A DNA stretch of 64,000 bases from a virus, in IMG/VR virus record IMGVR_UViG_3300010389_003143, positions 1 through 64,000 of that record; one strand, written 5' to 3'. Below are positions 26,372 to 56,822 of this stretch, piece after piece. Position numbers and translations under genes: made by a program. Numbering within the stretch: the first letter of the stretch is position 1; every line of letters starts with the position of its first letter. The notes below the pieces were generated by a model, which was given only the letters and a program-made list of their open reading frames with translations, did not search any database and was not told the DNA's origin.

Positions 26372-26465
26372 GTTGTCTCCTATCGAAAAAAATAATAGCC
26401 ATGGCCCTTGGCTTTGACAACCTTTTTTGACCATGGCTAAATTTTATTGCGCTTAAATAAGCCCG

Positions 26466-36762: not shown

Positions 36763-38054
36763 AGGATCCTGGCCGCATAATCTGCTAGAGGACTTCTCTC
36801 TCCCTTTAGAAGGGTTATATGTGAAGAAAGATCAAAATCCTTAAACTTTTCAACAATTGCTCCGAGCCCAGAGGTCGTTGAGTCAAGATGGGGCGCATCA
36901 ATTTGCTCAAGATCGCCCAGCATTATGAGCTTTGAATCTTCGCCCATTCTAGTTATAACGGCCTTCGCTTCGTTATAAGTAATATTCTGAGCCTCATCCA
37001 GTATCATGACGATATTTGGCAAGCTTCTTCCTCTAATATAAGATAGGGCCTCTATTTCTATGATTCCCTTTTCCATCATTATATCGAAATAATGAGAGCC
37101 ATTTTTAAATAAAAGCTTGAAATTATCAACCATTGGCTGAATCCACGGAGCCATCTTTTCATTCTTATCTCCCGGCAAGAAGCCAATGTCTGCGCTTAGA
37201 CTCTGGACGGGTCTCGATATAATAATTTTGTCATACCAGCCTTCATTTAGCATGTGGATTGCTGCGCATGTAGCCATAAGGGTCTTTCCGGACCCAGCCT
37301 TCCCGCTGATTGTTGTCATATGAACATCGCGATCTAGCAGAGTTTCTAGGGCAAACATTTGCTCCTTATTTCTTGGAACAATGCCCTGAACCTCAAAGCC
37401 TCTCTTGCTAGCATGGTTTAGCTTTTTTGCAAAACCATCCTTAAAACATGCAAGAGCACTTTTTTGACCGCCCTTTAGAACTAGGAATTCATTTGGCTGA
37501 TATAGGCCTTCGAGGGCAACCTTGCCATCGCAATAAAATTCATCAACCTTGTCTGGAGGCAGGTCAATAACGGAAACTCCAGTATAAGCACCCTTCCTAT
37601 TTACTACGGCCTTATTTTTGCTGTAGTTCTCTGCCGGTATGCCTAGCGAATCACATTTAACCCTTACATTAATATCTCTTGATATTAGAACTACTTCTTC
37701 TTCTGAAAATTCAGGTAATCTTGATAACTTTAGGGCTGTGGCAATAATTCTATTGTCAGCGTTATCATCAAGCATTGGGTCTAGGTCGCTTTTTTGCAGT
37801 TGAGTGTAAACTTGAATTTCTTGACCATTATCAAGAGTTACTCCGTCTGCAAGCGACCCTCTTTCCCTTAATTCATCCAAGAATCTATTGACATACCGAG
37901 CAGAGTTGCCGACAGAATCCGATCTTGTTTTCAGGTTATCTATTTCTTCCAGAACGACCATCGGTATAATGACCTTTTGATCAGCAAAAGCGTGTATTGA
38001 ATCTTCATGATGCACTAACACTGATGTATCTAAAACAAATGTTTTCTTTTTCAC
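36759..38054 (-). CDS. phoH: PIN-domain + PhoH ATPase (PhoH2/YlaK type)
   Basis: FVLDTSVL..DNRII..SRDINVRVK (PIN); GKAGSGKT, GFLPG, YIRGRSL, LDEAQN. Confidence 0.92.
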   Translation of the reverse strand: MKKKTFVLDTSVLVHHEDSIHAFADQKVIIPMVVLEEIDNLKTRSDSVGNSARYVNRFLDELRERGSLADGVTLDNGQEIQVYTQLQKSDLDPMLDDNADNRIIATALKLSRLPEFSEEEVVLISRDINVRVKCDSLGIPAENYSKNKAVVNRKGAYTGVSVIDLPPDKVDEFYCDGKVALEGLYQPNEFLVLKGGQKSALACFKDGFAKKLNHASKRGFEVQGIVPRNKEQMFALETLLDRDVHMTTISGKAGSGKTLMATCAAIHMLNEGWYDKIIISRPVQSLSADIGFLPGDKNEKMAPWIQPMVDNFKLLFKNGSHYFDIMMEKGIIEIEALSYIRGRSLPNIVMILDEAQNITYNEAKAVITRMGEDSKLIMLGDLEQIDAPHLDSTTSGLGAIVEKFKDFDLSSHITLLKGERSPLADYAARIL

Positions 38055-41132: not shown

Positions 41133-42641
41133 TTAGCTGAAAATCCAAAGCCTTTGACCAGCATCATAAATCTTTGACCAACCCCATTCTTTAGCCTGCT
41201 CAGCTTGACTTAAGCCTCTCTTGTCCATATTGGCTCGACATCTAAGTCTATTATAGGTTTTTCTCTTATCGGTCCATCTAAAGCCAAGTGTTTCTCTTTC
41301 CATCTGAAAGCCTAGCTGCTGCAAATAATTACCCGTGCCATACCTTAGATCCGCCCAATAATGAATCGGAAGCTTTTTTGAGTTATCTCTTATCTTAGAT
41401 ATAAGCCTTGAGGCTCCTCCGACAACAACCGTTTCAACTTTTGAGCATAGCCTTTCTATCTTTAGATATTCTGAGTAAACCTTATAAGAAGCAGCCATAA
41501 TAATTTCATCATTATGGATAAGACCAAAAGCAGGGGCGTTAAAGCTGCCCATTAGGTGATTCTTTGAGAAAAACTCTCTTGCCTCTTCTGCGGTTAGTTT
41601 TCTAATCTTTGTTTTTCTGGCATAAAAAATCCTGCTTCTTCCTTCTGCATTATTTATCATTGATTTTATTATTTCAATCTTATCGTAGACCTCATCTTCT
41701 CTAAACTGAAATATTCTCAAGCCAGAATCTTCAAAATCCTTCCTAAGGTTAAAGTGATAATTTTTATCGACCCCATTAAAGTCGGAGTGCCAATAAAGTC
41801 CATCAACATTGATGGCAGTCAAGCTATTTAATTTAAAGTCCGGCTTATATCTTAATCCAGGGTATCTTTCAAGGTCAAAAGTCTTGTTATAAAATTCTAG
41901 CCCAAGCTCTCTTGATAAAAGTGTTTCTAAATGATTGTTTTTGTCACCATGACCACTTATATATTCGGCCACATCCCCTGTAGTTATAATTCCCTCTCTT
42001 ATTAGCCTGTAGGCATTCACAGGAGGTACAGAAGCTTCCAAGCAGGCCTGATTGACGGTTCTCCCGTCCTCTAGCGTGCTAATCAGACCCCTATCAATCT
42101 TTGTGGATATTATCTTTCTTACAACATCTTCGGATTGAGCCGGGTGTCTTACTCCAAGTTTTTTTAAGTTTGTTTCCTCCGCCTTATTCCTTACTTCAGA
42201 GTTCTGCATCGGATTTTCTACGCCATATTTTTCTTTTACAGATTTTTTTATCTTTTTCTTTATAACATCCGACTGAAATGAGTGCTCTACACCATATCTT
42301 TCCCTATTTGTCTGAACAACTTTTCTCATTCTAGCTTTCTGCTTTAAATTATTATCTTTTTTAATATTATTCTTTCTAAGAGCAGAAGCAATAGTCGGAT
42401 CTGTGACGCCGGCCATTTTTGCCATGTCCACGGTTGACATATTTTTAACAATATAATTATCGTAAAGCCACTCCTTATCTAGATGGTATTTTGGCCTAGA
42501 TAAAGAGTACTTTCGAATTCGATCTTTAACATATTTGTATGATCGATTAATTTTCTTGGCTATTTGATTAATTGATAGCCCTTGATTTATGTAAAGATTT
42601 GTAAGCAGATCTTTAGTTAAATCTTCTTTTACCACCCCCAC
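41133..42641 (-). mobile_element. Free-standing homing-endonuclease-like gene (HTH repeats, ERYGVE repeats, PD-(D/E)XK/Vsr-like nuclease, C-terminal YARK..YDAG domain)
   Basis: QTNRERYGVEHSFQS repeats; YKPDF..INVDGLYWHS..FQFREDE; overlaps the nrdB stop. Confidence 0.72.
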
Positions 42642-43606
42642 TCTCCGTCCATTCCTGAGGCATTATAGTCGGTTACACGTTTCTCGAAGAAGTTGCTCAT
42701 AGTGTCTCCATTGAGAACCCAGTCTAGCCAAGGTAGGGGATTTTCTTTAACACCATAATTTGGCTTTAGACCAAGCTGAATAAGCCTACGATCAGCAATA
42801 TATCTGATGTACTGCTTCATTTCATCCGCAGTTAGGCCTTCGACCGGCCCTACAGCGTAAGCTAAATCGATAACTTTGTCCTCAAGCTTAACGGCAGTCT
42901 TGTACATCTCATAAATAGACTTTTTAAACTCATCATTAACAACTCTTGGGTGTTCTTCACAGAATGTGCGGAAAAGCTTTGACATATATTGGACGTGAAT
43001 GGTCTCGTCTCTTACTGACCACTCAACGATAGTACACATGCCCTTCATTTTTCCAAATCTTTGGTAATTTAGAAGCATAACAAAAGCAGAAAAAAGAGAC
43101 ATACCCTCATTGCAAACAGATTGAGCCAGAGATAGCCCGATTCCTCTTTTTGAGGAAACATTTGTGCTCTGCATGAACTCAAGCTTTTCAGCCATCTGCT
43201 CATATTCGAGAAAAGCCCAATATTCTTTTTCCTCAAGGCCCAGGGTATCATTCAAAAGAGCATAAGCACGCTGGTGAGTGCCCTCTCTATTTGCAAAGCT
43301 AAGCAGCATATTTCTTATTTCGTTATTTTTGAAAACAGGAATAAATAAGTCACAATAATTTCCTCCGACCTGTACGTCAGTCTGAGTAAATAACCTTAAG
43401 ATTTGGGTAATATGCTCTTTTTCGTGATGAGTAAGGGCCTTGCTCTTCCATTGGTTTACATCCTCCTGTAATTCGGCCTCCCAGGTGCCCCAGTGAACCT
43501 TTTCATGGGCCTCCGCAGCCTCCATAGCCCATGGGTACTGAAATGGCTTGTAGGCCTCAGATGAATTTAGTAATCCGCCCCTATTTATCCCTGACATGAT
43601 AGACAT
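42629..43606 (-). CDS. nrdB: Ribonucleotide reductase class Ia beta subunit
   Basis: YKPFQYPWA, REGTHQRAY, RDETIH, NFFEKRVTDY. Confidence 0.95.
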   Translation of the reverse strand: MSIMSGINRGGLLNSSEAYKPFQYPWAMEAAEAHEKVHWGTWEAELQEDVNQWKSKALTHHEKEHITQILRLFTQTDVQVGGNYCDLFIPVFKNNEIRNMLLSFANREGTHQRAYALLNDTLGLEEKEYWAFLEYEQMAEKLEFMQSTNVSSKRGIGLSLAQSVCNEGMSLFSAFVMLLNYQRFGKMKGMCTIVEWSVRDETIHVQYMSKLFRTFCEEHPRVVNDEFKKSIYEMYKTAVKLEDKVIDLAYAVGPVEGLTADEMKQYIRYIADRRLIQLGLKPNYGVKENPLPWLDWVLNGDTMSNFFEKRVTDYNASGMDGEWGW

Positions 43607-46302
43607 TCTCCTTCTTCTTCTGCATAATCCGCTAACGCAACTCTCTCTACTTTTGCCGAAACCTTCTCTGGATCAACTCCGGCATTTGTTCTTAGATAAT
43701 AAAGCGCTTTCAGACCCATTTTCCAAGCTTTAATATGGGTCATTAGAACGTAGTTCTTATTGGACCCAGCTGGGAAGAATAGATTTACGCTCTGCCCCTG
43801 GCATATAAATTCCTGTCTTCCACCAGCATGCTCAACAACCCATCTCTGGTCTAGCTCAAAAGCCGTCTTGAAAACAGATCTTTCCCAGTCGCTAAGAAAG
43901 TCAAGATGTTGAACAGACCCTTGATTGAGGATTACGGAATTCCAAGCTTCTTCCTTTTCTTTTTCGTCTAGATAGTTATCAAAGACCTTATCTAGCTCGG
44001 GGTTCTTTACCAAAAATGATCCAGCCCTTGTTCTGTGAGTATAGGCGTTTGACTTCCAAGGCTCAATTGACGGACTTGTGGCTAATATAATAGAGCTATT
44101 TGCATTAGGGGCTATAGCAAGAAGATGTGCGTTTCTTACTCCGCTTTCGGGGCCGTCTGGATAAGCTCCCTTTTCATCGGCAAGCCTTCTGGTCTCTTCT
44201 GTCGCTCTTTCTTTAATATCGCTAAATATAGAAGAATTCATAGCTGTAGCCATAGCGCTTTCCCACGGTATTCCGTTTCTCTGAAGAAGATCGTGGAAGC
44301 CCATTGCTCCAAGGCCGATGCTCCTCTCTCCTCTGGCTCCATTTACAGCCCTCCAAAGCTCCTTTGGAGCATTCTCGATAAATACGTCCAAAACGTTATC
44401 GAGCATTCTTACTAGGTCCTGAACAATCTTGGTGTCTTTCCACTCATCCCATTTTGCAAGATTTAGACTGCTCAGGCAGCATACGGCAGTCCTATCAGCC
44501 GCCGTAGGCAAAAATATTTCAGAGCACAAGTTTGAGCCATTTATTCTTAGATCCAAATCTTTAAGCTCTTTTGGAAGATGCTTATTTGAGGTGTCTATAA
44601 AATGAAGATAAGGTTCGCCGGTTCGGTATCTTGTTTCGATAATCCTCTGAAGAAGCTCTCTTGCACCTAGGGTATCTCTAACTGTTCCATCCGCAGGGTC
44701 TACGAGGTTCCAGTCTTCATTTGCTATAGCTGCCTTCATGAAATCGTCAGTTATATTTACAGCATTATGCAAATTAAAACACTTTCTATTTGGATCACCG
44801 CCAGTTGGAATTCTCATTTGTAAAAATTCAACAATATCAGGGTGTGAGATATCTAGGTAAGCAGCATATGAGCCCTTCCTGGTATTTCCACAGACTAGAG
44901 ATCTACCGTTACTTCTTACTAGCAGTTTGCCTTCTGGAACTAATGCACAGTAAACATATCCATCATAAGGGACCTCTTCCTTCCTAACCCTTTGAGTTGT
45001 GAAATGGTTTTTGTTTGAGACTACAACATAAAAAGAATTTTTTCTTGGATATTCTCTCTGCTGCTCTTTAATTCTAGCTCTTTTGCCAGCTAAAGTAGCT
45101 GCAGTAAAGACAGTATCAGCGCATGCTTTGCTTACTGATGAATATGTAAAGTTTGTTGCCCTCTTACTTGAGTCCCAATTAGATACTTCATCCAAGAAGC
45201 TCGTAAGCCATTCATAACTTCTTGTTTCTGGCCTTACCCAAGAGAGGTCTTTTGACTCCCAAGCATAGTTGGGGACATCGGGGATATTTCTTACATCGCT
45301 GACTTTCACCCTGATTGTGCAAGTTCCATCATTTCTATAAATAAGATTATAGCTATAGTTAGACTCTCTAACTATTCTGAGCAACCTATCGATCTTTCTC
45401 TGCTTCTTAAAATGAAACTCAATAGACTTACCGTTATAATTAGTTCCATCAGCCTGAAAGGCGACAAGAAGTCTGTCTGAATTTGAAAAACTTTCTTTAT
45501 TATTATTTTTAATTTTTCCAGAAAAAGCCATTCTCACTTCAGAGTGTGATGGAAGCATATCAGCCCTTACTTTTTGAAGATCGTCATTCCAGCCACCCTT
45601 GGTCTTTCTGTCTATAACCATTGAGTGATTTGGAGTTACCATAATATCAACATTTTTTTCATCCACTACACGGATAAGGTTGCCATTATGATATTCTCTT
45701 ACAAGCTCTATCGGCTTGACAAACGACACTTCGCCCCTGGAGGTTACCTGCGCGACCTTATCATGGTCGGTTAGTTCGGAAAACTTAATGTAGCCTTTGT
45801 CCGTCAATACCTCAACATCAGGGTGGTAACACTTGCCCTGGCGATAAGCATTCATATCTGCGTCAACTGTTTTTAGGAATGGAATTGGTCCGGGTGACTT
45901 TTCCGAAACAGAGCGAACTGATGACCAGTGGCCACCGACCCCGCCTCCCTTGACAGATAGCCATCTAAGCTCTGAGGAATGCTCTATAAGGCCCTCAAGG
46001 GTGTCGTCGACCCAGGTAAGGAAGCAGCTTATCGGAAGCGCCCTCCAGGCCTCTCCGGGCTTTGGAGCATTGCTCAGAACGGGGGAGGCAAACATGAACC
46101 AGCCCTTGCTTGCGTAATCATAAATTCTTTGGGCAAAACGAAGGTCGCCGTCGCAATAAGCGAGAGCTGCTCTACCAAACGCCTCCTGGGGCGAGGTTTC
46201 TTCGTTCAGCATGTAGTACTGTTTTAACAGGGTTTTTGAAAAATCATTTAAATTATCATCTCTGTCGAAATCCAGCAGGATTCCGCCGTACTCAGTGCTC
46301 AT
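43585..46302 (-). CDS. nrdA: Ribonucleotide reductase class Ia alpha subunit with intein
   Basis: PISCFL, SNLCSEI, AVCCLSS, AIAPNANSS, C-terminal CLSCQG. Confidence 0.95.
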   Translation of the reverse strand: MSTEYGGILLDFDRDDNLNDFSKTLLKQYYMLNEETSPQEAFGRAALAYCDGDLRFAQRIYDYASKGWFMFASPVLSNAPKPGEAWRALPISCFLTWVDDTLEGLIEHSSELRWLSVKGGGVGGHWSSVRSVSEKSPGPIPFLKTVDADMNAYRQGKCYHPDVEVLTDKGYIKFSELTDHDKVAQVTSRGEVSFVKPIELVREYHNGNLIRVVDEKNVDIMVTPNHSMVIDRKTKGGWNDDLQKVRADMLPSHSEVRMAFSGKIKNNNKESFSNSDRLLVAFQADGTNYNGKSIEFHFKKQRKIDRLLRIVRESNYSYNLIYRNDGTCTIRVKVSDVRNIPDVPNYAWESKDLSWVRPETRSYEWLTSFLDEVSNWDSSKRATNFTYSSVSKACADTVFTAATLAGKRARIKEQQREYPRKNSFYVVVSNKNHFTTQRVRKEEVPYDGYVYCALVPEGKLLVRSNGRSLVCGNTRKGSYAAYLDISHPDIVEFLQMRIPTGGDPNRKCFNLHNAVNITDDFMKAAIANEDWNLVDPADGTVRDTLGARELLQRIIETRYRTGEPYLHFIDTSNKHLPKELKDLDLRINGSNLCSEIFLPTAADRTAVCCLSSLNLAKWDEWKDTKIVQDLVRMLDNVLDVFIENAPKELWRAVNGARGERSIGLGAMGFHDLLQRNGIPWESAMATAMNSSIFSDIKERATEETRRLADEKGAYPDGPESGVRNAHLLAIAPNANSSIILATSPSIEPWKSNAYTHRTRAGSFLVKNPELDKVFDNYLDEKEKEEAWNSVILNQGSVQHLDFLSDWERSVFKTAFELDQRWVVEHAGGRQEFICQGQSVNLFFPAGSNKNYVLMTHIKAWKMGLKALYYLRTNAGVDPEKVSAKVERVALADYAEEEGECLSCQG
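44884..45831 (-). mobile_element. Intein (316 aa) in NrdA with a degenerate-looking LAGLIDADG domain
   Basis: YRQGK|CYHPDVEVLT...VTPNH...GRSLVCGN|TRKGS. Confidence 0.9.
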
Positions 46303-46669
46303 TTATTTCCCCAATTTTCATCTTTAAATTTTTCGTTTTAGCTGAAGCGATCGTGGCTAAAGATTTATGCATGAAAATTGTTTCGACAATAATTTTTAAG
46401 TCTCTTCTACACAACTTCTTACTTACCTTTAACCACTTAAACTTGCAAAAAAATTGTTACGAATTTATTCGTTCCAAAGAAATCTGCGTACTTAAGCCTT
46501 CCATTTTAATAGATTTTCAGACCTTACATTAGAGGGCTTGCTTTAGAATCTTATTGTTTTTCTTTTGTTTTATATATTCTTTTGAGCATCTAAAAAAAAA
46601 ATAATTTTTTATTAAATTTACAAAATCTCATAGATCCATTCGATGCTTAAAAGCCTGATTTGAACTGAC

Positions 46670-46703
46670 AAAAACGGCCCGAGCATTTTGTAGCCCGAGC
46701 CAT
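46670..46703 (-). terminator. Rho-independent terminator closing the prkA-yhbH-spoVR-dac operon
   Basis: Minus-strand RNA AUGGCUCGGGC-8nt-GCUCGGGCCGU stem (with G-U pairs) followed by a U-tract. Confidence 0.65.
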
Positions 46704-46730
46704 CTCAAATTATGAAAGTTAGCTGATCAG

Positions 46731-47297
46731 CTATTCATCTGACGGATCAAACTGCTCTACGAATGTGCCATTCTTCCAGGTTCTCACTACTGCAGTTTCT
46801 TCAGATAGCGTGAATACCGCTATAATATCTTCTCGCGTAGAAAAAGATGCAGCACTAATATGCCTTGTGCCGCAGCCATCGGGTACATCAAGAGATGAGT
46901 CATCAACTACCAGGTAAATCTTTGATCCAATTATTTGACCGTTTCTATTAACGATTATAGCGCCGTCAGCACCTTCGTTCAACATAGAGAAGACATCTTT
47001 CGTAAAAGCATCCTCACATATGTTTATGTACTTCTGTATAGGATTTACCCCTATCTGCCTCATGCCAGGAACCATGTGATCGTCAGATTTGTCGAAAACT
47101 CCAAGAACAATTATAAGTCCAATATTTCTATTTTCATTAAAGTTATTTCTAGATATTTGGGACAATAGCGTGAATATACTTTTTTCTACTTTTTGGAAAT
47201 CTCTTGCAGCATTAAACTGATATGAGAAATCTATGCTAGAGATTTTTCTAGAAAATTCTGGCTTGCTGACTTTTGCGGTCTCCAAGTCATTACTCAT
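46731..47297 (-). CDS. Stand-alone diadenylate cyclase (DisA_N/DAC domain)
   Basis: Catalytic DGA (GADGAIIV) and GTRH (GCGTRHISAA) motifs, then LSEET. Confidence 0.82.
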   Translation of the reverse strand: MSNDLETAKVSKPEFSRKISSIDFSYQFNAARDFQKVEKSIFTLLSQISRNNFNENRNIGLIIVLGVFDKSDDHMVPGMRQIGVNPIQKYINICEDAFTKDVFSMLNEGADGAIIVNRNGQIIGSKIYLVVDDSSLDVPDGCGTRHISAASFSTREDIIAVFTLSEETAVVRTWKNGTFVEQFDPSDE

Positions 47298-47316
47298 GAC
47301 CTTCCCCTGGTTTATT

Positions 47317-49803
47317 TTAGTTGCTAAAACCTAATTCATCATAGGTGTAATTTATAATAAAACCAGAATCATCTATTGTCTCTAGATTTAGCGGAGATCT
47401 CCAGGCCTCATATATGTATTCCATAACTTTCTCTGCATGGGTTACATCTAAGGTTCCTATATTTTTTGAAACATGGTCAAGTTGCAAAAAGCCATCTTCA
47501 ATACCCGTTATAGCTATAAGCGGTGCCCTATAATTATAAAGATCCTTCGTAAGCGATTCAACAACGCTATTTAGGTCTGTTCCGGTTATGTGAATGCCCC
47601 GATCTCCGCCAGGAGTCTGGATATCCTTATAACTAAACAGCTTAAGCTCTTGTGCCAACTCTTTTGTTAAATAATTTCTAATAAAGGATATATCGTCTTC
47701 CGTTTCTACAACTTTATAGACTTTCTCTAGCCCAGTCAGGCTTGAGGTGCCCTCCTCATGGAATCGGTCCCACCTTTCCTTTATATCTGTAAATATCTTA
47801 AAGCCTAAGAAATACGGGTTTATATTTAAGCTATTTCTTCCTGGCTGCACGACCTTTTCGTGAAGTCCACAGAAATCTAGATGCTCTCCATGATTTATAC
47901 ATTCCAAATCAGACATTAAGTAAGCGTGAACAAAGCTTGCAAATCCTTCGTTCATTATCTTTGTCATGTACTGCGGATAGAAGTAATAAGTTTCTTCCCT
48001 TATGATTTCAAGAATGTCTACCTGCCATGACTCAAGGCTATTTGAATAATTAATCAAGAACCATAGTATATCCTTTTCCGGATTGGGAGGAAATCTATTC
48101 TTTGGCACAACCATTTTTTTCGACATGGACTTTTCGTCCAGCAGGTCCGAGAACTCATCTTTTGCCACAGTCTTAAAGTACTTTTTCTTTCTTGGGTATT
48201 TGCTGCGCCTTAGACCTTTGTGCCAGTCTATATGCTTATCCAGAGCAAAGCCAATATCCATAATTCTTTCGACAGCGTCTATTCCGTATTTCTGAATATA
48301 TTCCTCTATTCTTTGCGCTCTTTCTGCGGCATGGTAGACCATCTTATTATCAGTTTTCTTAAATAAATAATTATTTTTAAAGAAATGACAGTTGTGAGCT
48401 ATCATTCCATTGTCAATAACAAAACTGTGATCTTCTTCAACTTCTATATCATAGACTGGGACCTCTTCGAGTAACTCGACTCTTCTTGCCATAGTCACTT
48501 TTGAAAATAGATGCTCATCGGTCTGCTCTGAAAAAGACCAAGTGCGATTTATCTCTTTCTCAAAATTGATATCGCAAATTTCAAGAAGCTTTCTGTGAGC
48601 CTTCCCATGTACACTTAAATCATAACAGGTTTTTCTGCCCTTCCGACTCCTGGACTTTATGCTTGCTTTAATTCCAAAATCTTTAAGAATGGACTTTGTC
48701 TTATAAGCCAGCTCACTACTTGTTGTGGTAAAGCTTGACTGGTATTTATCGCCCTTAATATGGCCATCACCCTCGAATAGGCCTCTAATCATGCCTATCA
48801 TAAAATCTCTTGGAGTATCCGGGTCTGCTGCAAAATTTGGAATAAATTTATTATTGGAGTGCCGACCACACTCTTTCTCAAGGAACATTCCAAATGACTT
48901 GTCATACACCATAACTCTCCTTGAAGAGTCAGACTCTCTTATGGTGACTCCGGTGTTTATGCCCAACTTTTCAAACCAGTTCTGAATAAAGTCCGAATAT
49001 GAGGCTTCATCTTTATGTAGCGAAAATGCAAAAGATGTATTGTTACGACTTCCTTCTGCTATATATAATCCAATTATTCTGCCAAAATCGCAGTCTAAAT
49101 CAACCTGATATCCGCCAAACTTATTGGCCAACTCCTTCTTCCATCTAGGTGTTGGTCTTGATACTTCTATGGGAATAAGTATGCTCTTTTTATTTTTGCT
49201 ATATGATATCTTTGGAGTTATCACCAAATCGTTTTCGGTAACGTCTTTTGCTTCGCACCAGAACATCATATTGTCACGCTTAATCAAAAGTCTATGCTCG
49301 GGGGTGCATCGCGATGGGCTTTCCTCTCCCTTTACTCGAATCTCAACCAGATCCTTTGTTTTTTTGGTTTCCCTTGACTCGATAACTTGGCGGTATCGAC
49401 CTTTGTGAGTTAAAACCATATCTCCTGGAACTATACTCTTTATGTCTACGAACCCCCTCGTTGTCTCGACCCTTGTGTCTCCGACAAAGCAGTGCCCAAT
49501 TACGTGAGCTATGACCATAGTATTTGCTATATCAGAGTTTGTATCCAGCAAGAATGCATAGGACGGGTTGTTATTCAAAACAACCTCATAAACCTTGGAA
49601 AAGCCCATTTCTCCTTGCATCTTCTGATAATCATAGGATTGGCCGTAACTCCAGTGCCTAGCCCTTGTTGGTAGTCCATAGCTGATAACCTCAAGCATTG
49701 TATCTTGAGATACAACCTCGTAATTTATCGGATAAGGGTCGAGATTCATATCTTCGGCCATCTTTTCCAAGATTTTTATTCTTTCAGTTAGGACCTTGTT
49801 CAT
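47317..49803 (-). CDS. spoVR: SpoVR/YcgB-family protein with intein (461-aa extein)
   Basis: GLPTRARHWSYG, YEVVLNNNP, AHVIGH..HFFKNN, TKIMNEGFAS, NPYFLG. Confidence 0.92.
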   Translation of the reverse strand: MNKVLTERIKILEKMAEDMNLDPYPINYEVVSQDTMLEVISYGLPTRARHWSYGQSYDYQKMQGEMGFSKVYEVVLNNNPSYAFLLDTNSDIANTMVIAHVIGHCFVGDTRVETTRGFVDIKSIVPGDMVLTHKGRYRQVIESRETKKTKDLVEIRVKGEESPSRCTPEHRLLIKRDNMMFWCEAKDVTENDLVITPKISYSKNKKSILIPIEVSRPTPRWKKELANKFGGYQVDLDCDFGRIIGLYIAEGSRNNTSFAFSLHKDEASYSDFIQNWFEKLGINTGVTIRESDSSRRVMVYDKSFGMFLEKECGRHSNNKFIPNFAADPDTPRDFMIGMIRGLFEGDGHIKGDKYQSSFTTTSSELAYKTKSILKDFGIKASIKSRSRKGRKTCYDLSVHGKAHRKLLEICDINFEKEINRTWSFSEQTDEHLFSKVTMARRVELLEEVPVYDIEVEEDHSFVIDNGMIAHNCHFFKNNYLFKKTDNKMVYHAAERAQRIEEYIQKYGIDAVERIMDIGFALDKHIDWHKGLRRSKYPRKKKYFKTVAKDEFSDLLDEKSMSKKMVVPKNRFPPNPEKDILWFLINYSNSLESWQVDILEIIREETYYFYPQYMTKIMNEGFASFVHAYLMSDLECINHGEHLDFCGLHEKVVQPGRNSLNINPYFLGFKIFTDIKERWDRFHEEGTSSLTGLEKVYKVVETEDDISFIRNYLTKELAQELKLFSYKDIQTPGGDRGIHITGTDLNSVVESLTKDLYNYRAPLIAITGIEDGFLQLDHVSKNIGTLDVTHAEKVMEYIYEAWRSPLNLETIDDSGFIINYTYDELGFSN
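48391..49491 (-). mobile_element. Intein (367 aa) in SpoVR with LAGLIDADG endonuclease
   Basis: AHVIGH|CFVGDT...CTPEH...IIGLYIAEG...IRGLFEGDG...VYDIEV..MIAHN|CHFF. Confidence 0.93.
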
Positions 49804-50990
49804 TTTTTAACCTCTTTGTATGCTCTTCCATCTATGTTAAAGAATAACTTTAACGCATCAAAAACTTCATCCTTAGATGATATCCTCATTGAAACGAATC
49901 TTGTTCTCTTTATTTCACCCTCTAGCATATAAGAGAGTTTCTTATCATCCGTCCCCCAAGAATATGAATCGCCAAGGTCTATTTCTCCATACCCTATTGC
50001 TCTGACCATCGGCAGCATTTTTTTAACGTAATCAATGACGAGCATGTTGTCATTAAACCAGTTGTCGCCGTCGCTGAACTCAAAAACATAATTATTCCAC
50101 TGATCAGCAGGGTGATGCTCACTCATATGCTCGTAGGCAAGCTTAAAGGCCGAAGAACACTTTGTGCCCCCAGAGCCGCTCATACTAAAGAATTCTTTTT
50201 CAGTTGTAGTAAATGCACTTACATCATGGGCGATAAAAACAAGTGATATATTTTTATATCGCCTCTTAAGAAACTGAACCATCCAGAAATAAAAGCTCTT
50301 TGCAATAAAGACTTTATCTTGTGTCATGGAGCCACTGATGTCCATCATAAGATAAACCGCAGCGTTTGATAAATACTCTTTATTTACCTCATAATGGCGA
50401 TACCTTAAATCGTCTTCATTGATTCCGCCGATTTTCGCCTCACCTTTTGCAGCGTTTCTCTTTAGGTTTTGAATTAAAGTCTTTTTTAGATCTAGATTTG
50501 GATAAATACCCTTTTTATTTATAGAGGAAAGCTCCTCTGTCTCTATCTCTATAAAAGAAGACTTCTCCGGCTCCATCCATGGGAGATTTAGCTCATCCAT
50601 AAGGATCTCAACAAGCTCATCTATGGTGACTTCTGCATCATAGAAGACCTCGCCCTCTTTGTCGCCTGCCTTATCTCCTTTTCCCTTTCCTTTCTTCTTT
50701 TTATTTATCCTAAATTTATCACCGCCCTTGACATCGAGGCCTTGGCCTGTGCCTGAGCTGTTATTTAGCTTTCCGTACTTAAACTTATACCTATCGAGAA
50801 ATCTAATCGGCACCTTTATCTTTTTATCGCCATCGGACGTAATGATATTGTGCTCAGTGATTAAGTCCTTTCCGTTTTTGCGTATAGCATCGTTTACAAG
50901 CTTTTTGTGCCTCTCAGAGTCTCTCTTGCCCCTTTGCTTTAGCTTCCAAATATCGGAAAGATTTTCACGCGATTTCGGAGAGCCAGACAT
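49800..50990 (-). CDS. yhbH: YeaH/YhbH-family vWA protein
   Basis: RDSERH, DDLRYR, MMDISGSM, GGTKCSSA, FEFSDGDNW. Confidence 0.9.
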   Translation of the reverse strand: MSGSPKSRENLSDIWKLKQRGKRDSERHKKLVNDAIRKNGKDLITEHNIITSDGDKKIKVPIRFLDRYKFKYGKLNNSSGTGQGLDVKGGDKFRINKKKKGKGKGDKAGDKEGEVFYDAEVTIDELVEILMDELNLPWMEPEKSSFIEIETEELSSINKKGIYPNLDLKKTLIQNLKRNAAKGEAKIGGINEDDLRYRHYEVNKEYLSNAAVYLMMDISGSMTQDKVFIAKSFYFWMVQFLKRRYKNISLVFIAHDVSAFTTTEKEFFSMSGSGGTKCSSAFKLAYEHMSEHHPADQWNNYVFEFSDGDNWFNDNMLVIDYVKKMLPMVRAIGYGEIDLGDSYSWGTDDKKLSYMLEGEIKRTRFVSMRISSKDEVFDALKLFFNIDGRAYKEVKK

Positions 50991-50992
50991 TA

Positions 50993-53900
50993 TTAATTCC
51001 TTGCCATTAAGGAGCTTACGTATCTGAGAAGCTTGTTTGCGCTTTCTGCGTTGTATCCATGCTTATCGCATAGAGTCTGCACAACTACGTTTACTCTCTT
51101 TAGCTCTTCTTCGTCGGGGTTTCTGGCAGATACGGTTAGTCGAATGACATCCTGCCTCTCATCGAATAGCTGCTTCTGAAGGGCCTCTCTGAGCTTTGCG
51201 TGCTCTCTGTAGTCATAAGCGCCACCATTTGTTCTGGCGGACTTAAGCATCTTTCTGTAGATCTCCTGGCGGAATGAGTTTTTGCCAGACTCAGTAATCC
51301 CAACCTTCTCTTCGATTGAGCGCATCAGCCTCTCATTCGGAGGAGAATACTCGCCCCATTCGTCCTCAATCTTTGCTCCATCGAGGTAAGCGCCGACATG
51401 ATCCATGTAGTTGGACAGAAGGTTCTGAATCTCAGACTCGAAGTTTACGAAGAATGCCTTCTGGACCTCATTTCTGGCAATCTTAGAATACTCCTCGATA
51501 ACTGTCGTAAGGATATTGTCCAGGCGGTCAATCTCCTCCTTATCGAGCTTCGGATTTGAACTAAAGCCATCTCTAATTGCTCTGATTGCATCGATAGGAG
51601 TGAGGCAGCTGGTTCCGTCTTGAGCTAGAGCTGATGAAAGCCTATTTATAATGTATCTCGGAGAAACACCGCCCATGCCCTCTGCCTCAAATTCTTTCTT
51701 GAGAGTTGGTACATCGGATTGAGAGAATCCGTCGACCTCCTCTCCATCATAAAGCTTCATCTTGTTTAGCTGAGTTAGGCCATTATTCTTAGAATCCTTA
51801 AGTCTAGATAGAATTGCGAACATTGCTGCGCAATGCAGCGTGTAAGGCGCTATATGTACGTTCTTGAACATAGCCTGGCCGATAAGCTTCTCGTAGATCC
51901 TTACTTCCTCTGATACCTCAAGGTTATAGGGAACCTTTACGACAATAATTCTGTCATGAAGGGCTTCCATTTCGTCCTTTGCTAGGAAACGCTTATACTC
52001 GGTCTCGTTAGTGTTATGGCAAAGAACCTGCCCTATACCTGCGACGAATGAGTGATTTCCTTCACATGCAATGTCGAATACTTCTAGTGACTCTACATAT
52101 AGAGATTCTATTTTATTTACACCAGCATTTGTATTCTTTAGCCTAAAACGGATACCGTAGGCATCTTTTCCAGTTGTCGTGTAACCATGATAAATCGAGT
52201 AATCCTTACCCAGAATAGAGGATATAAATCCAACTTGGGAGGCAAGCATCTTTGAAGTAGTTTTGTATCTAAAGAAGTTTTCCTCATACTCTTCACTTGC
52301 ATTATCAAAGTAGAAGTTTGTGGAGCCATCACCTTTTACTAATTCGTCTAAGAAAAATGTTAGCATCTCATTGCTTAGATTGAATACAAAGTTCGGAACC
52401 TTCTTGCCATCGGAGTATTTGCCGCAGTTTAGCTCCAAGAGGTCTTTCCATATCTTGGTTGACAAATGAAGTCTGCTTGTTCTATCTTTTTTATCGCTTC
52501 TGTCCTGAAGAGAAGATGTGGAGGTGCTAATTCTTTCGGACGCAGACTTTATGAGGCTAAGCTCGTTTAATGACTGCTGACTAATAATGGCATGAGCGCT
52601 ATTTACATGTCCCTCAGTAATATACCATGCCATAGTTTTTAGCAAATCTTTTACATCTTGAGTGTCCTTAAGATTGTATCTAACTTTAACTTTATTTTTT
52701 CTAAATTGGCCATTACCCTTATATCCTTCGATATCCTTTATTCTGGCATAGCCATCATCATCAACTTCCATATCTTCTGATAGCTCCAAGGTAAAGCTCT
52801 CTGCAACTTCAATTAGCGGAGCTTCTCTTAGGGCGCAAACATCTAGTTTATCCTCGGGATAGAATGGCTCAAGATCATCAGAGTAAATAGAGTGATTATA
52901 CGTAGTTTCTACAACTCCATTTTTTTGAATAGTTTTAATTAGATTTCCAGTAAATGGATGGCTATAAAAATTCTTTACCTTTGTCCATTCAAATTCTTTT
53001 GTATTTAAATTCATGGCAATAACTTCAATGTTAGTATCGCCCGCCCTAGCTAGATCTGCGATTGTATCAAACTTTACTAGTCCATCTTTTCTATAGGGAA
53101 CAGGCTCATCGCCAACAATACTATGAGCTAGCAAAAACTCGTCAGCATAAATGAACGGAAATCTGCCAGTTTTAATATTTTTCTCTTGAGCAAGGGTCAG
53201 GAGAACATAAAGGAACTTCTGATCGACTTTGAGCATCTCAACGAACTCCATGATGCCTCTATTCGCTACGTTCAGCTCTCCATCAAAGCGGTAGGCTCTG
53301 GGGTCTGACTCAGAACCGAATTCGCCAATCTTGCTCAAGTCCATTGAGCCTACAAGCTCGGATACATCCTGACTCTTCTTGTCTGATGGAACAAACGTTC
53401 CCACTCCTATTCTGGACTGCTCTGAGAAGAACATTCTTTCTACAGGCAGCTTAAGAAAGTCTCCATCATACTTTTCCTTTAGGATAAGGTCCATGTAAGG
53501 AGAAAGCTTTCCATCAATCTTTATGCCATAATCGTCAAAGAACTTCTGCCTTAGTGATTCGGGGATAGCAGTAAGCGGATCCTCATACATTGGAGACTCT
53601 GATAAGCAGTAGGTCTGGCCCTCATCCGTCTTGGCGAACTTCTCAAGACCTCTCTTCAGGGAGACGGCTAGCTGGGACTTTCCGGAAGAAGTGGGTCCGT
53701 ATAGCAGAAGGATTCTTCTGGAAACCTCAGACCCGGCGGAAGCAGCCTTTAGGTAGGACATAATCTCTGTAAGCGATTCATCTATTCCGAAAAGATCCTG
53801 GTCAAAGAAGTTGTATTTCGTGATATTGCCATCCTCATCGCGCTCGATGCCTTGGGACTCAATCATTCTCAGAACTCTGGTGTGAGAACTCATATGAATT

Positions 53901-54022
53901 TCTGGATTTTCCGTAACCATGCCAATATAGTCAGCAAGAGTCCCGCTCCAGTTTAGTGAACTTTCTTCGTCAACATGATTTTCTAATAGCTTTAGAAGAT
54001 TTGTTTTCTTAGATTGAGGCAT
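50993..54022 (-). CDS. prkA: PrkA/YeaG AAA+ ATPase/kinase with intein (639-aa extein)
   Basis: LYGPTSSGKS, GSESDPRAYRFDGELNVANRGIMEFVEMLK, AH|TNETEY, VPYNL. Confidence 0.93.
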   Translation of the reverse strand: MPQSKKTNLLKLLENHVDEESSLNWSGTLADYIGMVTENPEIHMSSHTRVLRMIESQGIERDEDGNITKYNFFDQDLFGIDESLTEIMSYLKAASAGSEVSRRILLLYGPTSSGKSQLAVSLKRGLEKFAKTDEGQTYCLSESPMYEDPLTAIPESLRQKFFDDYGIKIDGKLSPYMDLILKEKYDGDFLKLPVERMFFSEQSRIGVGTFVPSDKKSQDVSELVGSMDLSKIGEFGSESDPRAYRFDGELNVANRGIMEFVEMLKVDQKFLYVLLTLAQEKNIKTGRFPFIYADEFLLAHSIVGDEPVPYRKDGLVKFDTIADLARAGDTNIEVIAMNLNTKEFEWTKVKNFYSHPFTGNLIKTIQKNGVVETTYNHSIYSDDLEPFYPEDKLDVCALREAPLIEVAESFTLELSEDMEVDDDGYARIKDIEGYKGNGQFRKNKVKVRYNLKDTQDVKDLLKTMAWYITEGHVNSAHAIISQQSLNELSLIKSASERISTSTSSLQDRSDKKDRTSRLHLSTKIWKDLLELNCGKYSDGKKVPNFVFNLSNEMLTFFLDELVKGDGSTNFYFDNASEEYEENFFRYKTTSKMLASQVGFISSILGKDYSIYHGYTTTGKDAYGIRFRLKNTNAGVNKIESLYVESLEVFDIACEGNHSFVAGIGQVLCHNTNETEYKRFLAKDEMEALHDRIIVVKVPYNLEVSEEVRIYEKLIGQAMFKNVHIAPYTLHCAAMFAILSRLKDSKNNGLTQLNKMKLYDGEEVDGFSQSDVPTLKKEFEAEGMGGVSPRYIINRLSSALAQDGTSCLTPIDAIRAIRDGFSSNPKLDKEEIDRLDNILTTVIEEYSKIARNEVQKAFFVNFESEIQNLLSNYMDHVGAYLDGAKIEDEWGEYSPPNERLMRSIEEKVGITESGKNSFRQEIYRKMLKSARTNGGAYDYREHAKLREALQKQLFDERQDVIRLTVSARNPDEEELKRVNVVVQTLCDKHGYNAESANKLLRYVSSLMARN
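52013..53122 (-). mobile_element. Intein (370 aa, Ser1) in PrkA with LAGLIDADG-type domain
   Basis: FLLAH|SIVGDE...TTYNHSI...AWYITEG...ELVKGDG...VLCHN|TNETEY. Confidence 0.92.
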
Positions 54023-54025
54023 GAT

Positions 54026-54313
54026 TTAGTTTTCTCCATATATATTTCTAATTGTTCTCGAATCACCGGACCTAACTTTATTAGCAATTTTTTTGGCTTC
54101 TTCTTTTATCTCGCTAATAATTGTTTCTTTATCCTTTTTTATCTTACTAGATAAAGTGCCAAATGTTTGAGTGAATTCGCAAATATCGTTGCATTTATTA
54201 CACTCTATTTTTTTAAAATGACCAGAATTTTTCAGCTCTAAATAGAGGGCTATAGAAAAGCTGTATTCCACCTCTTCTGAGCAATTAGTGCAAGAATATC
54301 TGTATTTAGCCAC
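54026..54313 (-). CDS. FmdB-like Zn-ribbon protein
   Basis: KYRYSCTNC...ECNKC. Confidence 0.65.
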   Translation of the reverse strand: MAKYRYSCTNCSEEVEYSFSIALYLELKNSGHFKKIECNKCNDICEFTQTFGTLSSKIKKDKETIISEIKEEAKKIANKVRSGDSRTIRNIYGEN

Positions 54314-54499
54314 CTACTCTTCCTCTTCTGAATTATATATTACGATATCTTTTTCTACTTTTAGCTTGCCAGCTAAAGAAAAATCTCTTAATATTTTCTT
54401 TTTAAATTTCGCGTCGGTAACCCTAATTGTTATCTCTAGGTCATTAGACTTTGGGTTGTATAGAAAGTTTTTTATCTTACCTATTTCTTTTTCCGTCAT
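54314..54499 (-). CDS. Hypothetical protein
   Basis: Abuts neighbours. Confidence 0.5.
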   Translation of the reverse strand: MTEKEIGKIKNFLYNPKSNDLEITIRVTDAKFKKKILRDFSLAGKLKVEKDIVIYNSEEEE

Positions 54500-54824
54500 A
54501 AAGCGACTCTATTGCTGTTTTGATATGAGGGTTGTCTATTTCATTCAAAAGAAATAGCAGATCTGTTTGAGGCAGTTTTTCTATTTTAGCAATTGATGAC
54601 AGTGGCACATGCAATATAAAGCTAGGCTTTTCACCTGCAGATAATCCTTCAAAATCATCGCTAATCGGCACAACTGCAAGTGAGTCATCTTTCATGCTAA
54701 TGCTATTTACTATATATTTTTTAGAAATATCTGCATATATTGTTTTTAAAATAATTAAGTCATTTTTGCGAATAGATTCGATGTTATATTTCATTTTCAT
54801 CACCAAAATCTTCCGCCCAGTCAT
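54477..54824 (-). CDS. Hypothetical protein (start probably ~54797)
   Basis: ORF track. Confidence 0.5.
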   Translation of the reverse strand: MTGRKILVMKMKYNIESIRKNDLIILKTIYADISKKYIVNSISMKDDSLAVVPISDDFEGLSAGEKPSFILHVPLSSIAKIEKLPQTDLLFLLNEIDNPHIKTAIESLYDGKRNR

Positions 54825-56151
54825 CCGGCATATCTTCTATTCTAGAGTTTGGAAATACCTTTCTTAGCGATACTTTGCCCTTCGCACCGTCTCGGTTTTT
54901 AACTATATGGATCTCCATATCTTCGCGAAGGCGCTCGTCTTCCCTGTTGGCTATTATAAACACGACCGCAGCGTTATCTCCAATCATTTTTGAGCGTCCA
55001 AGATCTTCGAGAGAGACATCGTCAAGCTTTTTGCCGCCGGTCTTTTTCTGCTGAGCCTTTCTTTGCGCCGCAGTTACAACTGGAATATTCTTTTTCCTGC
55101 AAAACTCATGAAGCTCCTCTGACACTCGGCCTACATCTAGCCAATCTGATCCAACCTGACCTATCGTGGGCTTCATTAGCTGCAGGTAATCCACGAATAC
55201 AGCATCTGGCTTGAAAACTCCAAGAAGATTTTCATACTTAGCCTCGATCTCCCCCATTGTTGTTCCGCGAGGCATGTCCAGAACGTAAAATACTTTATCA
55301 TAATCTTTTTGAAAATCTAAATTAGCAAGCCATCTCTTTTCTTCTACGTCGGTAAGCTGCGCTCTTGCGATGCCTCTGTGTCTTACATTTGCCACATTTG
55401 CATCCACCCTTTGCTCTAGCTGCTTTTTGCTCATCTCAAGAGATATATAAAGAACATTTTTTCCATCGTTGAATCCGGTAACGCCCTCAGACGGGACGTT
55501 GCTTCCAAGCCATGCATTAATTGCCATGTTCATCATCAACATTGACTTACCAGAAGAGCTTGCGCCGCCAATTACAAGCATCTCAGAGTTTTTAATGCCC
55601 CAGGTGTAATCATCCAGCTCTTTGTAACCAGATAGAAAACCTCTAATTTCATCCGGGTTCTCCATCGTATATTTATAGTCGTCCACTCTTGAGTCAACGG
55701 ACTGAGTTACGTTGCCCTCGGTAAAAACGTCAGATTTATAGAGCCTTTCTGTTTTGGATATTATCCTTTTTAGCTCATCGTTGTAGTCGACCAACGATTC
55801 ATAATCCGAATCCAGCTCTTCTGCTTTTTCTGCAAGACGATCGATTAGATATTTGTTATATCTTTCTTTTATTCGATCAATATAGAAGCCTATTTCATTA
55901 GCGCTACAACTTTCACCTCTGATAAAGTCTATTATTTCGGTCTCTTCCTCTTCTGCATCAAGAAGCTTTTCCAGAACCTCATACGATGGAGGACTCTTGT
56001 GTCTGGAGTAATAAGAGTGAATTTGAAGTGTAGCAGGCTTAAAGCTTGGGAGGACAACCAGCTTCAAGAGATCAAACTCTATCTGCATATAAACATCATT
56101 TACATTGGATGATCCCTTGAGCATCCAATTTAAAATTTTGGCATCATGCAT
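54784..56151 (-). CDS. dnaB: DnaB-like SF4 replicative helicase
   Basis: GGASSSGKS, ISLEM, FVDYLQLM, VTAAQ, KNRDG. Confidence 0.9.
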   Translation of the reverse strand: MHDAKILNWMLKGSSNVNDVYMQIEFDLLKLVVLPSFKPATLQIHSYYSRHKSPPSYEVLEKLLDAEEEETEIIDFIRGESCSANEIGFYIDRIKERYNKYLIDRLAEKAEELDSDYESLVDYNDELKRIISKTERLYKSDVFTEGNVTQSVDSRVDDYKYTMENPDEIRGFLSGYKELDDYTWGIKNSEMLVIGGASSSGKSMLMMNMAINAWLGSNVPSEGVTGFNDGKNVLYISLEMSKKQLEQRVDANVANVRHRGIARAQLTDVEEKRWLANLDFQKDYDKVFYVLDMPRGTTMGEIEAKYENLLGVFKPDAVFVDYLQLMKPTIGQVGSDWLDVGRVSEELHEFCRKKNIPVVTAAQRKAQQKKTGGKKLDDVSLEDLGRSKMIGDNAAVVFIIANREDERLREDMEIHIVKNRDGAKGKVSLRKVFPNSRIEDMPDDWAEDFGDENEI

Positions 56152-56822
56152 TATTTTCTCCGATAATCTTTGCCGCCAACGATAAACACGTCGACATGTC
56201 GTGACCTAAGTGATTTGAAAGATTTTGCGAAGAACCCCCCAAATATAGAATCTAAGTCATTATCATTTGAGCATAATATGGTCGGCAATTGGTTCTGGAA
56301 CCTTGTTCGCAAAACATACTCAAGAGAAGTACCAAATAGCTGCTCGGCCTTCTCGGATGGAAAAATCCAATGAGATGAAAATTCATCTATAACGAGAAAG
56401 TCCTTGCCGATGAGTTCCTCATAGTATTTCGAGGTATCCATCTGGCTGGATAGCATGTTTGCAACAACATCCGCCATAGTTGTGTATAGTGCCGAATACC
56501 TATTTGCTATCGCAAGTTTTAATATGCAACATGCGGTATAGGTCTTCCCGGTACCAAGATTTCCTGCAAAGATTAGCGACTTACCTGCATCATATAGGGC
56601 GTCTATATCTTCTATTCTTTGCTTTATCGTTCTCTTAAAGTTTGGGTCACCCTCAAAGTCCTTGAAAGACTTCGACCAATACTCTACCGGAATATTCGCG
56701 GAACAATATTTGTCTAGTCTTGCGGATTTTGCCTCGCACCTTATGCAACCATCTCCTGAACAGGCGGTACAAGACTCCTTAACCTGCTCTTTTTTTCTCT
56801 CAATCTTTTTCCTCGGAATCAC
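56151..56822 (-). CDS. dnaC: DnaC/IstB-like helicase loader
   Basis: N-terminal CxxC..CxxC; GNLGTGKT; LVIDEF; R..NQLPTILCSN; adjacent to the helicase. Confidence 0.85.
   Translation of the reverse strand: MIPRKKIERKKEQVKESCTACSGDGCIRCEAKSARLDKYCSANIPVEYWSKSFKDFEGDPNFKRTIKQRIEDIDALYDAGKSLIFAGNLGTGKTYTACCILKLAIANRYSALYTTMADVVANMLSSQMDTSKYYEELIGKDFLVIDEFSSHWIFPSEKAEQLFGTSLEYVLRTRFQNQLPTILCSNDNDLDSIFGGFFAKSFKSLRSRHVDVFIVGGKDYRRK

Follow-up and report, generated by a model that had tools for sequence, protein, structure and literature searches.

The first 64 kb of an 80,058-bp virus record in IMG/VR (IMGVR_UViG_3300010389_003143; CheckV completeness of 24%), a stretch of 64,000 nucleotides referred to below as the window, contain a compact gene run in which homologues of prkA, yhbH and spoVR are followed by a gene for a minimal stand-alone protein with a diadenylate cyclase (DAC) domain. 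The PrkA/YeaH/SpoVR trio is among the most widespread poorly understood bacterial modules. Its genes have already been annotated in phages; the minimal cyclase follows the trio in one phage clade only. No description of a phage- or jumbo-phage-encoded DAC, or of a DAC linked to the trio, was found in the literature, most subscription journals being outside the scope of that search. The reading that we favour, with a probability of roughly 45%, is that the trio acts as a resource-mobilising, proteome-remodelling module during infection and that the cyclase is a co-expressed, separable signal-maker, addressing the host or an unidentified receptor.

All three members of the trio lie on the same strand (minus, as do all genes of the surrounding block) in the order prkA-yhbH-spoVR. 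The gene for the PrkA/YeaG(SpdA)-family AAA+ protein (50993–54022; 1009 aa; phrog_22605) encodes both the AAA_PrkA domain (PF08298; 376 bits) and the PrkA C-terminal domain (PF06798; 240.8 bits; cut-offs of 25 each), the match to the former being split by an intein; its Walker A motif, GPTSSGKS, is intact in an alignment of the window protein with seven relatives. The YhbH/YeaH protein (49800–50990; 396 aa), which is of the von Willebrand factor A (vWA) type, matches DUF444 (PF04285) with 274.1 bits (cut-off of 27), and the residues of its D-x-S-x-S...T...D signature, resembling a metal ion-dependent adhesion site (MIDAS), are invariant in 11 sequences (D217, S219, S221, T276 and D307). The SpoVR/YcgB-family protein (47317–49803; 828 aa) matches SpoVR (PF04293) with 356 bits. 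The extein of PrkA comprises ∼639 aa and that of SpoVR ∼461 aa, and the intein-less orthologues encoded by the close relative L004 (trio at L004:5463–9953) measure 639 and 461 aa. PHROG families exist for PrkA, YhbH and SpoVR. The equivalog cut-offs of NCBIfam were missed in every case (PRK15455, 295.5 versus 576; TIGR02877, 361.7 versus 467.95; PRK11767, 214.7 versus 679 bits); judged by their sequences, the trio proteins are best regarded as members of the Pfam families and not as equivalogs of the characterised proteins.

In cellular organisms, conserved cofitness of yeaG, yeaH and ycgB has been reported (10.1101/072470). PrkA of Bacillus subtilis displays an ATP-dependent, Lon-like protease activity (PMC9512850), and starving Escherichia coli cells need YeaG, renamed SpdA, to break down their cytoplasmic proteins broadly and for the most part without specificity, whereby amino acids and ATP are gained (PMC13684143). 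Bacteria that do not sporulate often possess the trio, and its role in them is in responses to starvation (10.1101/072470, PMC13684143). An earlier note on this DNA had linked the module to dormancy and sporulation; this label derives from the gene names, and the published work points to ATP-dependent proteolysis and starvation-induced degradation (PMC9512850, PMC13684143).

The DAC gene (46731–47297) encodes a protein of 188 aa, which matches Pfam family DAC (PF02457) with 48.6 bits (cut-off of 27). The gene identities proposed in the earlier note (Zn-ribbon, prkA, yhbH, spoVR and DAC) were borne out, the Pfam matches of the last four being far above the gathering scores. The DGA and GTRH motifs that it had read in the DAC are likewise both there, the residue following GTRH being Ile. 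Numbered on the protein, the motifs are D111-G112-A113, T144-R145-H146-I147, where the RHR signature reads RHI, and S165-E166-E167; the DGA aligns with that of CdaA, and LSEET with the VSEET of CdaA. Disorder is seen in the first ∼20 residues, after which comes a conserved DFSxQF motif. Altogether, there are only about 30 extra N-terminal residues, partly disordered, and the protein is devoid of a sensor, transmembrane, YojJ-helix or HhH domain. The AlphaFold2 (AF2) model (pLDDT of 80.8) was compared with the PDB using Foldseek, and the matches listed were all of the DAC type (CdaA, DacA, DacM, CdaM and DisA; TM scores of 0.45–0.67, probability of 1.00), one of them being a Bacillus cereus structural-genomics entry titled hypothetical membrane-spanning protein.

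Among 120 homologues (51–89% identity), D111, G112, T144, H146, I147, S165, E166 and E167 are invariant, and A113 and R145 are conserved in at least 90%. When the comparison is widened to 25 sequences reaching down to ∼30% identity, the invariant positions include G112, A113, R145, H146 and S165, with D111 and E166 kept in at least 90%. The third position of RHR, always Ile in the close homologues, is occupied by I, R, K, L, M or T in the wider set. The only mutational evidence found on RHR comes from the DacA of Mycobacterium tuberculosis, in which a triple AAA mutant lost ATP binding and activity (PMC3328451). The dN/dS ratio of 0.19–0.26, which could be computed where dS was unsaturated (9 of the 78 pairs, dS being saturated in most), corresponds to purifying selection. 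The best NCBIfam match is the DacZ DAC domain (NF041371), albeit with 50.6 bits against a cut-off of 430, while the models for CdaA, CdaS, CdaM and DisA score at most 21 bits (CdaS with an E value of 1.3e-3). As far as can be told from its sequence, the protein would thus be a minimal, soluble DAC-domain protein outside every named class; it is probably enzymatically active and most likely a cyclic-dinucleotide synthase making cyclic di-AMP (c-di-AMP) or a close variant.

The genes are packed tightly. Gaps between the Zn-ribbon gene (znr) and prkA, prkA and yhbH, yhbH and spoVR, and spoVR and the DAC gene amount to 3, 2, -4 and 19 nt, exactly as the earlier note had given them, and the DAC gene, starting 19 nt after the spoVR stop, is preceded by a Shine-Dalgarno-like sequence, GGGGAAGG. 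Downstream of the DAC stop, RNA folding revealed an intrinsic-terminator-like hairpin of 13 bp followed by U5 (about 46667–46705; dG -26.3, z -3.99; none of 200 shuffled sequences was equally stable), in agreement with the terminator that had been noted at this place; the hairpin at 46667–46705 did not appear in the output of a simple terminator scan. An AT-rich spacer of 428 nt separates the hairpin from the gene for the large subunit of a class I/II-type ribonucleotide reductase (RNR; 43585–46302; Pfam Ribonuc_red_lgC and Ribonuc_red_lgN), which contains an intein and is the downstream neighbour in many relatives. Upstream of prkA, the run continues through znr (54026–54313), p61 (54314–54499), which ends directly before the Zn-ribbon start, p115 (54477–54824), the gene for a DnaB-type replicative helicase (54784–56151; Pfam DnaB_C), which is syntenic in all relatives, and that for a DnaC/IstB-like helicase loader (56151–56822; Pfam IstB_IS21), all with overlaps or zero gaps from p61 onwards. 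The loader gene overlaps the DnaB gene, which in turn overlaps the gene after it, and both are therefore probably part of the transcription unit of the cassette. A promoter scan did not rise above shuffled expectation and provides no evidence for or against an internal promoter.

A pattern scan of IMG/VR with a DAC alignment recovered 16 contigs of 35–395 kb, which have the order DnaB-(p115)-p61-Znr-PrkA-YhbH-SpoVR-DAC in common; three are partly visible, one being truncated, still with SpoVR-DAC, and two being seen only from the PrkA end onward. Of 80 metagenome loci in the scan, 69 had at least 200 nt of upstream sequence, and in 68 of these SpoVR lies directly upstream of the DAC. Repeated in the 16 viral contigs and in all but one of the testable metagenome loci, the arrangement is not a product of chance. 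The spoVR-DAC gap in the relatives ranges from an overlap to about 200 nt. A more distant 206-kb contig (L139), the DAC and DnaB of which are 42% and 33% identical to those of the window, displays the order PrkA-YhbH-x-SpoVR-x-SLOG-DAC-x-RNR. The open reading frame (ORF) just upstream of the DAC in this contig (L139:9496–9999) encodes a YpsA-like SLOG protein (35.5 bits). The DAC-spoVR adjacency on which the earlier note had made its own proposal depend is thus kept in the relatives, in the 16 viral contigs and the 68 loci, and the linkage, with two ORFs in between, also in L139. Pairwise identities of the DAC and YhbH proteins are correlated (Spearman rho of 0.86), indicating that the two genes have been co-inherited. 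Moreover, the whole block from DnaB to RNR is syntenic in this clade, and the adjacency therefore reflects one ancestral event, not many.

Members of the DAC family come from viruses or from metagenomic DNA without assignment. When 185,579 species, represented by one genome each, were scanned with the pattern, the family turned up on a single 8-kb contig only, binned with Pacearchaeota and carrying the phage cassette, so that the distribution of the family is almost only viral. About 195 DAC homologues and ∼20 distant clusters at 50% identity were collected; almost no taxonomic labels are attached to the distant ones, and pattern scans with a sub-alignment of distant DACs (A7) and with a single protein (P0130) retrieved no viral loci.

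Trio and cyclase can also be encountered apart. A scan with the YhbH profile identified 23 further trio-bearing IMG/VR records, at 28–36% identity, and none of them, including the genome of phiYS40, contains a DAC (PF02457) anywhere in the record. This agrees with the earlier note, the author of which knew of no DAC as a regular part of the trio module. Similarly, tblastn searches for the DAC in the INPHARED phage collection (50,697 phage records) gave no match, and no homologue of the Zn ribbon or p61 was detected near DAC-less trios in the stretches L001, L002 and L036–L058, the only ones searched. Conversely, a short salt-marsh contig (L126:1–1740) contains the end of DnaB, a small ORF, Znr, the DAC and the start of RNR without p61, PrkA, YhbH or SpoVR, and represents a natural deletion or else a chimeric assembly. 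A member of the DAC family with 35% identity (L143:9953–10582) resides in a 124.7-kb viral record without SpoVR, among genes for DeoC-like, HIRAN, Smr, PIN-PhoH, Rad52 and ClpB-like proteins. The 23 trio records without a DAC, together with these two contigs, indicate that the DAC is separable from the trio. DAC, p61 and the Zn ribbon are thus clade-specific additions to a module that is run without them in other phages and in cells.

Searches of five large relatives for known c-di-AMP receptors (CdAMP_rec, TrkA_C and CBS domains) and for the c-di-AMP riboswitch found none, which is suggestive of a target in the host or of a receptor of an unrecognised type. A PADLOC scan of seven cassette proteins, performed with a library of 2023 that is older than the description of the Panoptoo defence system, gave nothing beyond homing-endonuclease and weak AbiEi matches, noise caused by the inteins.

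Comparison with known systems places the phage cassette more precisely. With the cellular prkA(yeaG/spdA)-yhbH(yeaH)-spoVR(ycgB) module it shares the three Pfam families, the usual operon order and similar extein sizes (639, 396 and 461 aa), and its Walker A and MIDAS-type residues are intact. Unlike the cellular module, the phage copy is virus-encoded, has two of the three genes split by inteins, scores under the equivalog cut-offs, and is flanked by p61, the Zn ribbon and the DAC within a helicase/RNR block instead of a stress regulon. Annotated trios are also known from cultured phages, namely the Thermus phages phiYS40, TMA, MN1, phiLo and Lalka, the Ralstonia jumbo phage RsoM2USA and the Enterobacter phage LAU1. 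As in the window, their PrkA, DUF444 and SpoVR genes lie near genes of nucleotide metabolism: dCTP deaminase or dNMP kinase genes accompany the trio in the Thermus phages, helicase, RNR and PIN-PhoH genes do so here. However, identities are only 28–36%, and in the Thermus phages the order is yhbH-spoVR-prkA.

The DAC fold and the DGA, R-H and S-E-E positions of the window DAC are common to the DacZ-type enzymes (NF041371) and to CdaA, DisA, CdaS and CdaM, from all of which it differs by the absence of a sensor, transmembrane or HhH domain and by RHI in place of RHR. By description only, it can be likened to PanS of the Panoptoo defence system (bioRxiv 10.64898/2026.08.10.743927), a stand-alone minimal DAC of about 150–190 aa with partly divergent motifs. 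Defence-associated DACs conserve only select DGA/RHR residues, and minimal DACs of the PanS kind make 3'3'-c-di-AMP or 3'3'-cyclic UMP-AMP (cUA) as negative regulators of defence effectors (bioRxiv 10.64898/2026.08.10.743927). In contrast to the PanS and PanE pair, the window DAC has no S2TM-beta effector partner, is phage-encoded and is not located in a defence island. The two-gene layout of Panoptoo was not found either, the DAC being flanked by spoVR upstream and by the terminator, the spacer and RNR downstream.

The small proteins encoded ahead of prkA are less readily classified. Znr (95 aa; CxxC...CxxC) is FmdB-like (phrog_1076, E value of 3e-4) and has four invariant Cys residues and a C-terminal helical hairpin, at the end of which stands a conserved IRxIYGE motif; its AF2 model (pLDDT of 76.8) consists of a ribbon, a linker and two helices, and a fold search of the PDB with this model gave no significant match. 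The protein p61 (61 aa) possesses a conserved basic core, KFKKK..RD.SL.G, with a dN/dS of 0.16–0.49. It is clade-specific and kept in nearly all DAC-bearing loci, and has no family match in PHROG or NCBIfam. The small protein p115, with tblastn matches in many loci, is kept in most, but not all, relatives and matches no Pfam, PHROG or NCBIfam family significantly.

PrkA and SpoVR are oversized owing to one intact-looking intein each, the boundaries of which were set by global alignment with the intein-less orthologues of L004. The PrkA intein (aa 301–670; 52013–53122, minus strand; Ser1...HN|Thr+1) interrupts the conserved AH|TN motif of the AAA+ domain and shows weak Intein_splicing and homing-endonuclease matches. 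The SpoVR intein (aa 105–471; 48391–49491, minus strand; Cys1...HN|Cys+1) is inserted in the conserved HVIGH|xHFF motif and contains a LAGLIDADG endonuclease (Pfam LAGLIDADG_3, Intein_splicing and Hint_2). A third intein (aa 158–473; 44884–45831, minus strand) occupies a conserved motif of RNR. All three are located within 10 kb and are missing from L004, the closest relative. A free-standing DUF7487/HTH gene is found nearby (41133–42641), and homologous DUF7487/HTH(/Vsr-like) genes are inserted between the trio genes in three relatives (L005, L012 and L016). Selfish homing elements thus seem to have a hotspot in the DnaB-RNR block. Given that the insertions inside the cassette look like such elements, inteins or homing-type genes, they are no sign of a functional break-up.

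The clade to which the record belongs is one of large, cosmopolitan, uncultured aquatic jumbo phages of about 220–395 kb. Near-complete relatives measure 316–395 kb (CheckV completeness of 94–100%), one of them with direct terminal repeats. A search for YhbH homologues gathered at least 120 distinct clusters (90% identity) at 60% identity or more, on contigs that reach 422 kb and stem from marine (Tara), estuarine and freshwater metagenomes; it returned members of the same phage clade only, with no pointer to a cellular donor or a host. No cultured phage has a DnaB more than 28% identical to that of the window, and when the 7.6-kb region was compared with the phage collection at the DNA level, no match came up. 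There are no tRNA genes in the window. In addition to the block, the window encodes a PIN-PhoH fusion protein (36759–38054), a type IA topoisomerase with Zn-ribbon repeats (24290–26434) and a PG_binding_1/VanY peptidoglycan enzyme (19940–21229). The last of these favours a bacterial rather than an archaeal host.

The mixed 'Archaea/Uroviricota' labels of DAC clusters in the ESM Atlas are not counted here in favour of an archaeal host, in view of the VanY/PG-binding enzyme, the DnaB with its DnaC-like loader and the TopA encoded in the window. The contig binned with Pacearchaeota (L020:1–8231; 8.2 kb, from a metagenome-assembled genome labelled 'Candidatus Pacearchaeota') comprises DnaB-p115-p61-Znr-PrkA-YhbH-SpoVR together with the beginning of the DAC, all 70–81% identical to their counterparts in the window. 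This contig almost certainly stems from a jumbo phage and was mis-binned, and the archaeal labels on the DAC family in the Atlas may have the same origin.

Another feature of the relatives concerns purine metabolism. A short PurA-family protein (322–363 aa, a PurZ-like length) is encoded in all four near-complete relatives (G024, G025, G026 and G027), and in three of them its gene adjoins that of a DHH-DHHA1 phosphoesterase of 276–296 aa (L140:2324–3343 and L140:1454–2323, minus strand, in G024; L141:965–2005 and L141:2006–2836, plus strand, in G025). The pair could belong to a 2-aminoadenine (Z-base) or a purine-salvage pathway; alternatively, the DHH-DHHA1 protein could be a pApA/c-di-AMP phosphodiesterase. 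Neither gene is present within the 80 kb of the window's own record.

Several explanations of the cassette have to be weighed. In one of them, the phages possess a true four- or six-part machine, with the DAC product as a dedicated allosteric switch of PrkA, YhbH and SpoVR, possibly via the Zn ribbon or p61. The position of the DAC directly behind spoVR in 68 of the 69 testable loci and in 16 viral contigs speaks for such a switch, as do the persistence of the linkage at 42% DAC identity and a family distribution confined almost to trio-bearing phages (with one probably mis-binned contig among the genomes of 185,579 species); moreover, with no classical c-di-AMP receptor elsewhere in the large relatives, the cassette proteins remain candidate receptors. 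However, every case goes back to a single clade with a single ancestral arrangement, the synteny of which extends to DnaB and RNR in equal measure, cells and 23 further viral records carry a DAC-free trio, Znr-DAC occurs without the trio in L126 and a family member without SpoVR in the L143 record, and in L139 two extra ORFs, one of them SLOG-like, stand between spoVR and the DAC. We consider a dedicated switch unlikely. A four-part system had been proposed in the earlier note; the packing and the conserved adjacency on which it was based hold, while the coupling is weakened by the single inherited event and by the instances of trio and DAC apart. The functional side of that proposal, that the system senses or rewires host dormancy through c-di-AMP or is a cyclic-dinucleotide-gated conflict system, is weakened by the same points, and no PADLOC family was matched. 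The most far-reaching version, a virus-encoded, second-messenger-gated bulk proteolysis that would convert the host proteome into building blocks for a genome of more than 300 kb, with the Zn ribbon and p61 in the role of adaptors or receptors, is in our opinion doubtful.

Should the cyclase be independent of the trio, it might serve in counter-defence, flooding the cell with c-di-AMP or cUA and thereby silencing guard systems such as Panoptoo PanS/PanE or jamming nucleotide-based immunity, the position next to the trio being incidental. That minimal stand-alone DACs make c-di-AMP or cUA restraining defence effectors (bioRxiv 10.64898/2026.08.10.743927), that the phage DAC is likewise minimal and variable at the third RHR position in the wider family, and that it can occur without the trio are all consistent with this role. 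It is nevertheless improbable: there is no effector-like or sponge-like neighbour and no PADLOC match, the DAC is closest to a DacZ-type domain and not to a named defence DAC, and its strict place in a replication/metabolism block is unusual for anti-defence genes. Still less probable is a catalytically dead, nucleotide-binding pseudo-enzyme, acting as a regulatory or scaffolding subunit. The invariant RHI of the 120 homologues, seen against the inactive RHR-to-AAA mutant of M. tuberculosis DacA (PMC3328451), and scores far below the cut-off of every named DAC equivalog would fit a pseudo-enzyme; yet D-G-A, R-H and S-E-E, including the equivalent of the metal-binding Glu, are kept with only the third RHR position varying, active defence DACs also keep only part of the DGA/RHR motifs, and purifying selection on the pocket residues is strong. 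Control of sporulation or dormancy in a spore-forming host, by sporulation-gene homologues and a CdaS-like cyclase, is very improbable. YhbH does score best against the Firmicute spore_yhbH model (361.7 bits), and CdaS, the small sporulation-specific DAC of B. subtilis, is matched weakly (E value of 1.3e-3), but all equivalog cut-offs are missed and the CdaS match is much weaker than that to DacZ. Furthermore, the metagenomes that yielded the relatives, Tara among them, are pelagic marine, estuarine and freshwater ones, settings in which endospore formers are rare. The trio, too, is common in the starvation responses of bacteria that do not sporulate (10.1101/072470, PMC13684143).

According to the reading that we favour, a trio for resource mobilisation with a separable signal-maker, the DnaB-RNR block would be inherited vertically and expressed together with replication and nucleotide-supply genes. 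The Lon-like AAA+ ATPase PrkA, the vWA protein YhbH and SpoVR would use ATP to turn over or remodel the cytoplasmic proteins of the infected cell, and the amino acids and energy so released would serve a very large virus in waters that are poor in nutrients. Around the trio, the clade would have added p61, the FmdB-like Zn ribbon and the minimal DacZ-like diadenylate cyclase. The latter would be made at the same stage of infection and act mainly on host physiology or on another receptor, and not as the obligatory maker of a ligand for the trio.

A number of points weigh against this reading. The role in proteolysis is inferred by transfer from the cellular module, namely from the E. coli and B. 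subtilis proteins, and the phage proteins score under the NCBIfam equivalog cut-offs. Within a single clade, a near-absolute adjacency of DAC and SpoVR is compatible with plain inheritance and with true coupling alike, and both cases of a DAC without the trio have weaknesses, L126 being a single contig of 1.7 kb and possibly an assembly chimera, and the L143 record being only 44% complete. The block is probably co-transcribed, as judged only from gene spacing and from the lack of predicted terminators within it. With RHR reading RHI, the activity and the product of the cyclase are uncertain.

If trio and DAC were merely unrelated neighbours, the cassette would be a useful catalogue entry and not a new system. 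It is only of late that the trio has been connected with ATP-dependent proteolysis and with the bulk degradation of proteins in starvation, and its retention, intact, over deep divergence in a large and abundant clade of jumbo phages suggests that viruses exploit its activity. The intein-free phage orthologues offer compact material for the biochemistry of the trio. Through the DAC family, which is almost only viral, c-di-AMP-type signalling would join those nucleotide messengers that are made, and not only degraded or sequestered, by phages. Finally, to learn whether the DAC product binds the trio could reveal the long-sought input of the PrkA module.

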